From Escherichia phage RCIP0363, in sequence record PV464739.1: DNA of 64,000 nucleotides; one strand, written 5' to 3'. A program made the position numbers and the translations under genes. The notes beneath the pieces are model-generated. The model did not search any database. It was given only the letters and a program-made list of their open reading frames with translations, and was not told the origin of the DNA. This document shows positions 58,406 to 60,160 of this stretch, piece after piece. Positions within the stretch are counted from its first letter, which is position 1. Each line of letters starts with the position of its first letter.

Positions 58406-58631
58406 TCAACCAGCCAGCTGCGGCTAAGTCATTGATTTGCATAACAAGCGGCGAAAGGGATGGATTTCTTTTATACGTATCAAACAGTACACCACGCACC
58501 ATGGTCCGATATTCATTCAGCACTATGATTTATGTACTTTTACAGCCAATTTGAACATCAATCTGCACTTGAATATAATGTTCATTCATTGTATAATTCA
58601 CACTATTAATTTGCACTATGGGATTTGCACT

Positions 58632-59105
58632 ATGAGTCAAGATTATGTAGCAATGCCTGAAGACTTTGAAGACCCGCGATTTGCAGAGCATAATCAGGCA
58701 TTATTCGATGAGTTCATTGACCTTGTTATTCAGGGCCATGACATGCGCGCAGCTTTTGCACTAGTATTTGGCATGGAGGTTGCGACCGATAACTACACTG
58801 GCCAGCGAATCCTCTGCACGCAACGCAATCCTTACTACAAGATGCGCTACAAAAAGCGTATGGAAGAGATGCCATTGAAGGAACTGTGGAGTGTAAAGAG
58901 TTCCATCCACAATTTAGTGAAGCTTGTGCGTGATCCAGAAGTCGCGGCATCAGCCAAGCTTAATGCCATTCGTGAACTGAATATCATCTACGGCATCACG
59001 ATGATTGATGAAAACGGCAATAGCAAAATGGGCCGTTCCATGGATGATTTCTACAAGGATTTTGGAGAGGCTGCAAAAGAGGGTGAGCAATTCTCCCGCC
59101 ACTAG
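58632..59105 (+). CDS. Hypothetical protein, possible DNA-binding protein or small terminase subunit
   Basis: 157 aa; ATG at 58632 (track ORF extends upstream in frame); flanked by AATTTGCACTAT copies, one overlapping its start codon. Confidence 0.45.
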   Translation: MSQDYVAMPEDFEDPRFAEHNQALFDEFIDLVIQGHDMRAAFALVFGMEVATDNYTGQRILCTQRNPYYKMRYKKRMEEMPLKELWSVKSSIHNLVKLVRDPEVAASAKLNAIRELNIIYGITMIDENGNSKMGRSMDDFYKDFGEAAKEGEQFSRH

Positions 59106-59219
59106 CCAATTTGCACTATAAAATGGCCCTAGAACACATTTTCTCCACTTCTAGGGCCATCGGTAATACGACGGGGAAGGCTGCAGCCATAAACGCGTTA
59201 GAAAGTGTATTATTATAAG

Positions 59220-59483
59220 TCATCTTTTAGTCACTTTACGTAACAATTTACGACCTTCCGCCGTCCAGTCGAACGACTCCACCAGCAGATTTGCACTATA
59301 ACCTAAGACGATGCGCCCTTTCTCGTTATCGACCCGCCAACAAGTCTCGAATAGCATTCGATTTGCACTATTAACTATCGCCGCAACGCGCGTTGGGTAA
59401 GCGCAATTTGCACTATGATCATAAAGGGATAAGGTGCGACCACTTCCGATGGACAACGTAGCGATGAGAATAAGCGTATTCAT
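59220..59483 (-). CDS. Hypothetical protein (87 aa), uncertain
   Basis: ATG with ggtgg SD; contains three copies of the 12-mer, each encoding S-A-N in frame; may be non-coding. Confidence 0.3.
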   Translation of the reverse strand: MNTLILIATLSIGSGRTLSLYDHSANCAYPTRVAAIVNSANRMLFETCWRVDNEKGRIVLGYSANLLVESFDWTAEGRKLLRKVTKR

Positions 59484-59533
59484 AAGCCACCAATTTGCAC
59501 TATGAAAAGCGACCCCGAAGGGCCGCCATTCGA

Positions 59534-60160
59534 TTAGATGATCTGGAAGGTGTAGGACTTGTTGCCGAACTCGAAGTTCAAGCGTCCAGCTTCTTTAAGC
59601 TTCATGCGGAAGCGAATGTGCTTGCTATCCGGTAAGCCCAGCGCGGCGAACGCTACGCGGACCGATTTGAACTCGCCTACACCCTCGACCATAACGGCGT
59701 TACGGGTGAGACGCTTTTGCGCCACTTCCTTGTTATCCCAACTTTTTGCAATACCTTCGCTATTCGAACGGCGATGGGAAGGAGTTCCATTTTGCACTAC
59801 GCAATTTGCACTATCGTTTAAACCGCTCTTAACGAAGGCTTCATACTCTTCGTCGGTCATCGCGTCGAGTTCTTCCTGCGTCGGCTCGGCCTTTTTAACG
59901 ACCGCACGCGCCTTATGCGTTTTTACATCGCTGGACACTTCCTCGCGCGACTTCGCGTCGGGGATGGGCGATTCGTTGGACGGCTCATCGAGTGCGTTTA
60001 AGGATTCGATTAACGCTATTACGCGAGTCTCGGCGGTCCGGCGGTCCGCAAATTTTTTAATCGGCTTCGAACCGGAATTTGCATTATAAAATGCAACGAG
60101 GTCGGCGGTCTTAGTTGCGATAACGTCGCCGCTAGTCGAGAAACGATTTAAGCTAACCAT
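59534..60160 (-). CDS. Hypothetical protein (208 aa)
   Basis: ATG preceded by taggag SD; balanced protein-like composition; CpG-rich codon usage unlike the rest of the window. Confidence 0.55.
   Translation of the reverse strand: MVSLNRFSTSGDVIATKTADLVAFYNANSGSKPIKKFADRRTAETRVIALIESLNALDEPSNESPIPDAKSREEVSSDVKTHKARAVVKKAEPTQEELDAMTDEEYEAFVKSGLNDSANCVVQNGTPSHRRSNSEGIAKSWDNKEVAQKRLTRNAVMVEGVGEFKSVRVAFAALGLPDSKHIRFRMKLKEAGRLNFEFGNKSYTFQII

Follow-up and report, generated by a model that had tools for sequence, protein, structure and literature searches.

A one-strand array of a short DNA word beside the small-terminase gene is a candidate packaging signal in the terminal repeat of Wifcevirus phages

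The locus

We analyzed 64,000 nucleotides of Escherichia phage RCIP0363 (PV464739.1; hereafter the window), a Wifcevirus, that is, an Escherichia coli myovirus, with 95–97% identity to AV128, kaset, WFH, ECML-117, and Mansfield. Our subject is a 12-nucleotide word repeated on one strand through and beyond the gene at 58632..59105 (plus strand), whose 157-residue product is the small terminase (TerS). That identity is secure on sequence grounds: the protein matches the TerS of the Pseudomonas phage E217 (PDB 7UXE) over its full length (phmmer, E = 9e-33), and the Mansfield record annotates TerS.

The gene and the array lie inside a direct terminal repeat (DTR) of 3849 bp (58272..62120, a feature without strand), which is present as a single copy within the window and is delimited by a left cut at 58271/58272 and a right cut at 62120/62121. 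Two independent records fix these boundaries. The WFH record holds both repeat copies (3701 bp each, identical) and the Mansfield record opens at a PhageTerm boundary; the duplicated ends of the one and the boundary of the other both map to 58272 and 62120. Direct terminal repeats of ~3.7 kb have been reported for these phages (PMC6563267; PMC6753283). The left boundary lies 360 bp upstream of the TerS ATG. Because both records place the repeat at 58272–62120, the array starts ~320 bp inside the left genome end, with its first copies 323–350 bp from the boundary.

A one-strand array confined to one locus

Twelve copies of RATTTGCACTAT occur at 58595–60087, all on the plus strand and none elsewhere in the genome; the ~4.5 kb that fall outside the window, read in the 97%-identical AV128, contain no motif copy. 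A scan of both strands of the 64-kb window for AATTTGCACTAT with at most one mismatch returned nine matches, all on the plus strand (58608, 58622, 59108, 59288, 59360, 59405, 59492, 59803, and 60076). Shuffled sequences gave an expectation of 0.53, and none of 100 shuffles reached nine. The exact 9-mer core, TTTGCACTA, is present in 10 plus-strand copies within 58610–59813 and nowhere else in the 64 kb. The total of 12 adds the copies at 58595, 58753, and 59789, which carry two or three mismatches with the core intact.

A preliminary description of this locus had reported ten copies, always on the plus strand. The array is real and its polarity holds throughout (9 of 9 matches with at most one mismatch and 12 of 12 overall), and the exhaustive two-strand scan that it recommended confines the motif to 58595–60087 rather than finding it genome-wide. 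The ten sites exist, with corrections: two coordinates move by one nucleotide (58623 to 58622 and 59107 to 59108), the copy at 59789 has two mismatches instead of at most one, and the copies at 58595 and 58753 had been missed.

Three tandem copies open the array. The first, the degenerate AATTCACACTAT (58595..58606; two mismatches), overlaps the −10 hexamer of the TerS promoter; an exact copy of AATTTGCACTAT follows at 58608..58619; and GATTTGCACTAT (58622..58633) overlaps the TerS ATG. Together they cover the −10 region, the leader, and the start codon, at or just past the expected transcription start of two overlapping σ70-like promoters predicted at 58551..58597 on the plus strand (TTGAAC-17-TATAAT and TTGAAT-17-TATAAT). 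A copy with the exact 9-mer core, CTTTTGCACTAG (58753..58764), lies inside the TerS coding sequence (CDS), where the related lineage L021 has a copy at the equal position (+122), and an exact copy (59108..59119) starts 3 nt past the TerS stop codon, ahead of a bidirectional terminator. The placement scan thus agrees with the earlier account of one copy over the ATG at 58632 and one after the stop.

The array then runs across this terminator and through two minus-strand genes, with open reading frames (ORFs) of 87 and 208 residues. Within the 87-residue ORF, the copies at 59288..59299 (GATTTGCACTAT) and 59405..59416 (exact) read S-A-N in the protein, and the copy at 59360..59371 reads N-S-A-N, which is kept in homologues. 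An exact copy at 59492..59503 is intergenic, between the two ORFs. The 208-residue ORF holds ATTTTGCACTAC (59789..59800; two mismatches), which reads V-V-Q-N and forms a 14-bp tandem with the exact copy at 59803..59814 (S-A-N), and AATTTGCATTAT (60076..60087; one mismatch), which reads N-A-N. The frame trend noted earlier therefore persists with amended counts: instead of four of five copies, five of the six inside minus-strand ORFs read S-A-N or N-A-N, and the copy at 59492 lies outside them. Seven copies in all are within or upstream of opposite-strand genes. Spacing between copies ranges from 10 to 464 bp (median 77 bp), and we found neither helical phasing nor a preferred spacing among them.

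Conservation of the word in diverged relatives

The array occupies identical positions in ten Wifcevirus genomes, and within the genus 138 of 144 motif columns are invariant, compared with 1251 of 1426 neighboring columns (Fisher p = 0.002). Eight further lineages were reached through TerS homologues in public assemblies, making nine with the window phage. Identity of their TerS to the window TerS is 70% in L021, 53% in L024, 52% in L154, 50% in both L022 and L156, 45% in L023, 44% in Pantoea phage Kyle, and 43% in L157. All eight carry 7–14 core copies within −150..+1600 of the TerS start. Pooled over the nine lineages, GCACTA in this zone is confined to the TerS strand, with 95 occurrences against 0 (binomial p = 5e-29); the corresponding figures for 113 kb of sequence beyond it are 8 and 10. 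An apparent avoidance of GCACTA outside the zone, seen as depletion under a first-order model and not under Markov orders 2–4, was dropped. A logo of 43 copies carries information only from position −1 (R) to +10 (T), with random flanks.

Copy positions vary among lineages, and the small minus-strand protein carries S-A-N, S-A-D, or I-V-Q-I at varying sites where copies fall, which argues that selection acts on the DNA word rather than on the overlapped proteins.

The motif is absent in two relatives at 35–36% identity and also in MyoSmar, BcepF1, and Gekk3-15, and nothing comparable to the array was found in L158 or L159. Two candidates for an analogous array were rejected: a triple 16-mer in BcepF1 is the conserved leader and ribosome-binding site (RBS) of minus-strand genes, and a triple 20-mer in MyoSmar is a palindromic element ahead of RBSs. 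A scan of viral contigs for TGCACTAN{4,9}TGCACTA returned 120 loci, among which only ECML-117 was relevant; the rest were chance matches or coding repeats in AT-rich phages.

The TerS proteins themselves differ at residue 65 (window 58824–58826), in an RNPYY/F motif. Arg is invariant there in six aligned TerS (the window protein and five homologues), and the phages of those six, where DNA is available, carry ATTTGCACTA. The residue is Ser in JG024, MyoSmar, and BcepF1, and Gekk3-15 also differs at this motif. Arg 65 may be a specificity determinant or simply a clade marker.

Elements at the two ends of the repeat

The left cut falls within the AT-rich core of a ~230-bp junction element (58175..58410, without strand) flanked by TACGGATGA repeats. 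A paralogue with 77% identity lies at 6640–6870, between genes of the head-gene module, with no terminus and no array beside it. Both copies consist of tandem TACGGATGA, GCCGCkATACTTTATA, a ~70-bp AT-rich core, and inverted copies of TATCCGTA. Repeats of the TACGGAT type also occur upstream of TerS in L022 and L024.

At the right end, AATTTGCAGTACACTAATCAGAA (62144..62166, plus strand) lies 23 bp outside the DTR and resembles a motif copy that an insertion has interrupted (AATTTGCA/GTA/CACTA). A second copy of AATTTGCAGTACACTA (62241..62256, plus strand) lies 120 bp outside the DTR, 97 bp beyond the first. The Kyle record likewise holds both repeat copies, giving a DTR of 3603 bp whose left boundary is 356 bp upstream of the TerS ATG; its right-junction element, AATTTCACAGTACACTAATCAGAA, is exactly 23 nt outside the right boundary, as here. 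MyoSmar has the same layout, with a boundary 387 bp upstream of TerS. Related right-junction-like elements lie 3.0–4.1 kb from TerS in L021, L154, L156, and L157. The conserved element (GGTACTT ... CAGTACACTAATCAGAA) falls within window 62121–62260, 3604–3650 in Kyle (L160), and ~12960–13020 in L021.

A different array at the putative pac start of Pbunaviruses

Pbunaviruses are distant relatives (PMC11990801), with a TerS 39% identical to the window TerS. Their packaging mode is disputed, and recent work favors headful packaging (PMC10913387; PMC12390725). In the Pbunavirus JG024, 36 of 161 long reads begin at a putative pac start at 59,376 (PMC10913387), and the first nucleotide of the independent Pa193 record aligns with precisely this position, 600 bp upstream of the JG024 TerS gene (gp79, 59977–60546). 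All four genomic copies of GTAATTTGG and one of AAATTTGG lie on the TerS strand at 59114–59646, spanning 525 bp on both sides of 59,376 (p = 6e-10). Pbunavirus is therefore a second genus with a co-oriented, AATTTG-core array beside TerS at a mapped terminus. Across the comparison, one motif accompanies the nine lineages with TerS identity of at least 43%, and a different, AATTTGG cluster accompanies the 39%-identical TerS of Pbunavirus.

A TTTAAAATTAATAAAATTAAT stretch and the GTAATTTGG/AAATTTGG copies flank Pa193 position 1 (JG024 59114–59646, loci L026 and L027; Pa193 1–270, locus L005); the TTTAAAATTAATAAAATTAAT stretch resembles AAATTAATTTAAATTAAT at the Wifcevirus left end.

Chi complements interleaved with the array

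The array motif is not Chi: the 12-mer is unrelated to 5'-GCTGGTGG-3'. Co-oriented copies of CCACCAGC, the complement of E. coli Chi, are interleaved with the motif in seven of the nine lineages, with 2–9 copies each in the same ~1.5-kb zone (L022, 7; L024, 5; L154, 7; Kyle, at the L155 locus, 9; L156, 6; L157, 8; L023, 2). Strand counts in the zone are 21 to 1 in a first set of six lineages and 6–9 to 0 in Kyle, L156, and L157. The Wifcevirus window has a single CCACCAGC in the zone (59279–59286), abutting the motif copy at 59288, and L021 has none; both keep the motif. MyoSmar, without the motif, has four CCACCAGC. No polar k-mer family other than the motif and the Chi complements was found in the zone. 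The CCACCAGC clusters span 323–1824 in L022, 411–1836 in L024, 1625–3322 in L154, −102..+1615 of TerS at the Kyle L155 locus, and 6653–6993 in L004; typical densities in the relatives are 5–9 copies per ~2 kb, with none on the other strand.

Neighboring genes and other features

The 87-residue neighbor has a hydrophobic N terminus and a conserved Cys, and to judge by these features it looks like a secreted protein. The 208-residue neighbor is uncharacterized and keeps its synteny across relatives; among the matches listed in a homologue search, there were near-identical sequences only. Neither these proteins nor a 94-residue protein and other small neighbors had an informative match in Pfam, PHROG, PADLOC, or PDB, and no DNA-binding domain was found in them.

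Public assemblies include many contigs of 3.2–4.1 kb that carry the 208-residue DTR gene, and one contig that bears a gene of this DTR is exactly 3849 bp long. A double-coverage terminal repeat probably assembles as a separate contig, and the size of such contigs could give the repeat length of uncultured relatives.

The window has a strong deficit of short palindromes—GATC occurs 106 times, CCGG 74 times, and CTAG 31 times, against ~250 expected for a random 4-mer—and several 6-mers, such as AGATCT, ACCGGT, and AGCGCT, are absent from it, a pattern that looks like restriction-site avoidance. In L021, a repeat family, TGAACCGTGA, with ~10 copies on the plus strand and seven on the minus strand at 6189–9430, clusters in the early-gene region upstream of TerS.

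Discussion

The preliminary description had offered three candidate roles for the array: binding of the adjacent protein, service as the pac site of a small terminase, and a phage-specific promoter family. Since the small terminase is itself the adjacent protein, the first two become one, and the context supports a role in packaging: the array lies just inside the mapped left end of the repeat, at a locus unique in the genome, and recurs as a one-strand array beside TerS in nine lineages. From this context we tentatively read the array as a terminase recognition and loading zone that would mark the start of packaging, the likeliest of the accounts considered here and quite possible, though we are not confident of it. 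The array is in any case a strong, testable candidate for the mark by which the packaging enzyme would recognize the genome start. It resembles pac and cosB-type sites in lying beside a packaging cut or terminus—here, in Kyle, and, for the Pbunavirus analogue, at the reported pac start—and in occupying a single genomic locus, with all copies at 58595–60087.

In such a scheme, a ring-shaped TerS, for which the solved E217 protein is a decamer, would bind the copies through its N-terminal helix-turn-helix motifs. Binding could single out the AT-rich junction element at 58 kb from its paralogue at 6.7 kb and position the large terminase to cut at 58271/58272 and package rightwards; in lambda, gpNu1 plays this part from the cosB R sites next to cosN. 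The split motif 23 bp past the right boundary would mark the second cut and so define the repeat. Through the tandem trio at its own promoter, leader, and ATG, TerS might in addition limit its own synthesis; a review notes that overexpressed E217 TerS lowers phage yield (PMC9611059).

Several observations weigh against terminase recognition. The copies are irregularly spaced and unphased, single copies are lost in some isolates, and the array is spread over ~1–1.5 kb. Known TerS sites (lambda cosB, SPP1 pacL/pacR, and P1 pac) span about 100–200 bp. The motif stays unchanged while TerS diverges to 43% identity, and because MyoSmar, BcepF1, L158, and L159 have no clearly analogous array, co-variation of motif and TerS rests on one contrast, Wifcevirus-like phages vs. 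Pbunavirus. By an orientation rule that has been restated recently (PMC12315714), the interleaved Chi sites are active on RecBCD that comes in from the TerS-proximal end. In lambda logic, this is the end without terminase cover. It follows from this orientation that the TerS-proximal end would be open to RecBCD at some stage, and the Chi clusters thus suggest a separate, testable piece of biology. Finally, according to a review, the homologous TerS of E217 showed no appreciable binding in vitro to the DNA tried (PMC9611059).

The irregular spacing and the association with Chi keep two other accounts in play. One holds that the motif is a second polar end-processing or recombination signal alongside Chi; on the way inward from the left end, an enzyme would read it, or a protein would block it, with end protection and recombination between the two terminal repeats as possible purposes. 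The interleaving with co-oriented Chi complements in seven lineages, as the only other polar family in the zone, fits this account, as does an irregular multicopy layout like that of the terminal Chi clusters of lambdoid phages (PMC12315714). Wifcevirus proper and L021, nearly without Chi in the zone, keep the motif. The motif is not Chi, however, and its reader must be postulated, none being known among enterobacterial enzymes. The split variant at the right junction and the Pbunavirus pac-start cluster also point to cutting and packaging, not recombination. We consider this account unlikely, and equally so its specific form, in which a phage-specific, Chi-analogous signal read by the terminase motor or by a nuclease/helicase from the left end sets end processing together with the Chi cluster. 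Were it true, the signal would control regeneration or recombination of the 3.8-kb repeats and represent a new class of cis signal for long-terminal-repeat phages. The other account makes the copies strand-specific nick sites, at which a phage nickase would leave localized single-strand interruptions in the virion DNA; T5, phiKMV-like phages, and tf have sites of this type. A strict one-strand consensus of ~10 nt is the hallmark of such sites, and the strand counts here are 12 to 0 for this phage and 95 to 0 for the nine lineages together; irregular spacing and tolerated copy loss fit as well, and the 14 sites of tf, which match TACT/RTGMC, all lie on the top strand and are unevenly spread (PMC3517423). 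Known nick sites are nevertheless spread along the genome, whereas all copies here fall in 1.5 kb beside TerS inside the terminal repeat, and no nickase candidate was identified, so that we rate nicking, too, as rather improbable.

Regulatory and replicative roles fare no better. Operators for another phage DNA-binding protein that silences or times the terminal-repeat genes would account for the tandem trio that covers the promoter, leader, and start codon of TerS, and the syntenic, uncharacterized 208-residue neighbor could be invoked as such a protein. Most copies, however, lie in CDSs or past stop codons, far from promoters, and they keep one direction whatever the gene direction; the 87-residue neighbor looks secreted, and the neighbors yielded no DNA-binding domain. 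An operator function is accordingly doubtful. Still less probable are iterons of a replication origin. The repeats are short, co-oriented, and near an AT-rich region (58240–58360), and the TerS region of Pbunavirus and MyoSmar has a primase gene immediately upstream. The regular tandem spacing, unwinding element, and initiator gene that together characterize iterons are not found in combination here, however: spacing is not regular, copies extend across three genes, between TerS and the last large upstream gene there are about a dozen small ORFs, and no replication gene adjoins the repeat in the Mansfield annotation (positions 1–55,000). Cumulative skew in the window peaks at ~58 kb and shows no dip; the GC-skew minima proposed as Pbunavirus origins lie elsewhere (PMC12390725).

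The third role in the preliminary description, a phage promoter family, is not supported, and together with an RNA-level motif we hold it very improbable. CACTAT recalls the core of T7/SP6-type promoters, and all copies could lie on one TerS-sense transcript. The copies nonetheless do not sit upstream of genes, co-oriented with them, in a conserved architecture: they oppose the genes that contain them, tandems at 12–14 bp are incompatible with promoters, the logo shows no second conserved element outside the 12-mer, and the local genes already have separate σ70-like promoters. At positions 1–55,000, the Mansfield record annotates neither a phage RNA polymerase nor a sigma factor. As for RNA, a terminator follows TerS, there was no Rfam match, and the co-located Chi sites act on DNA. 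In a by-eye comparison of consensus sequences, none of sigma-54, DnaA, integration host factor (IHF), or other host factors fitted the motif.

A literature search by motif string returned no match to the word, and we found no pac or recognition sequence described for Wifcevirus or Pbunavirus and no DNA target for an E217-type TerS. If terminase recognition is the correct account, the site would be unusual in its length, its strict polarity, its presence inside genes, its pairing with Chi, and its occurrence in a long-terminal-repeat myovirus. The E217-type TerS, whose structure is solved, is that of a therapeutic family of Pseudomonas phages. The array, the right-boundary element, and the Pbunavirus AATTTGG cluster provide concrete sequences for binding, cleavage, and packaging assays, and, if they are real cis signals, they would help in rebuilding or engineering such phages from synthetic DNA.

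Comparison with known packaging and end-processing systems

In lambdoid phages without recombination modules, terminal Chi clusters likewise place many irregular one-strand short words near a genome end (PMC12315714), and genuine Chi clusters occupy the same zone in most relatives studied here. The 12-mer differs in not being Chi and in being tied to the TerS gene and to both cut sites. With the nick sites of T5, phiKMV-like phages, and tf, the array shares a one-strand consensus of ~9–19 nt in about 4–14 copies per genome (PMC3517423). Those sites are scattered and their nicks demonstrated, whereas the present copies, known from sequence alone, lie within 1.5 kb of the repeat.

In T7, the short co-oriented repeat arrays SRL and SRR adjoin the terminal repetition near sequences for concatemer processing. 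The phage family, the terminase, and the length of the terminal repeat (160 bp) differ from those here, and the function of the T7 arrays is itself unsettled. Lambda cosB, with its sites R1–R3 bound by gpNu1, offers a likeness in arrangement: a set of short repeated sites separates the small-terminase gene from the cut, on the side that would be packaged first. The cosB sites are needed to aim the nuclease at one particular site. Lambda has three sites and an IHF bend in ~120 bp, in mixed orientation and with cohesive ends, whereas the present family, as read from its DNA, has 10–14 co-oriented copies over ~1–1.5 kb, running through genes, and a 3.8-kb DTR.

The pacL-pacC-pacR boxes of SPP1/SF6 and the seven pac hexamers of P1 are alike in that multiple short repeats in or beside the small-terminase gene flank the cut. 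Those sites are compact, at ~100–160 bp, and serve headful packaging rather than fixed ends, and the P1 sites are methylation-dependent. It is the AATTTGG cluster around the reported pac start of Pbunavirus that resembles this SPP1/SF6/P1 layout.

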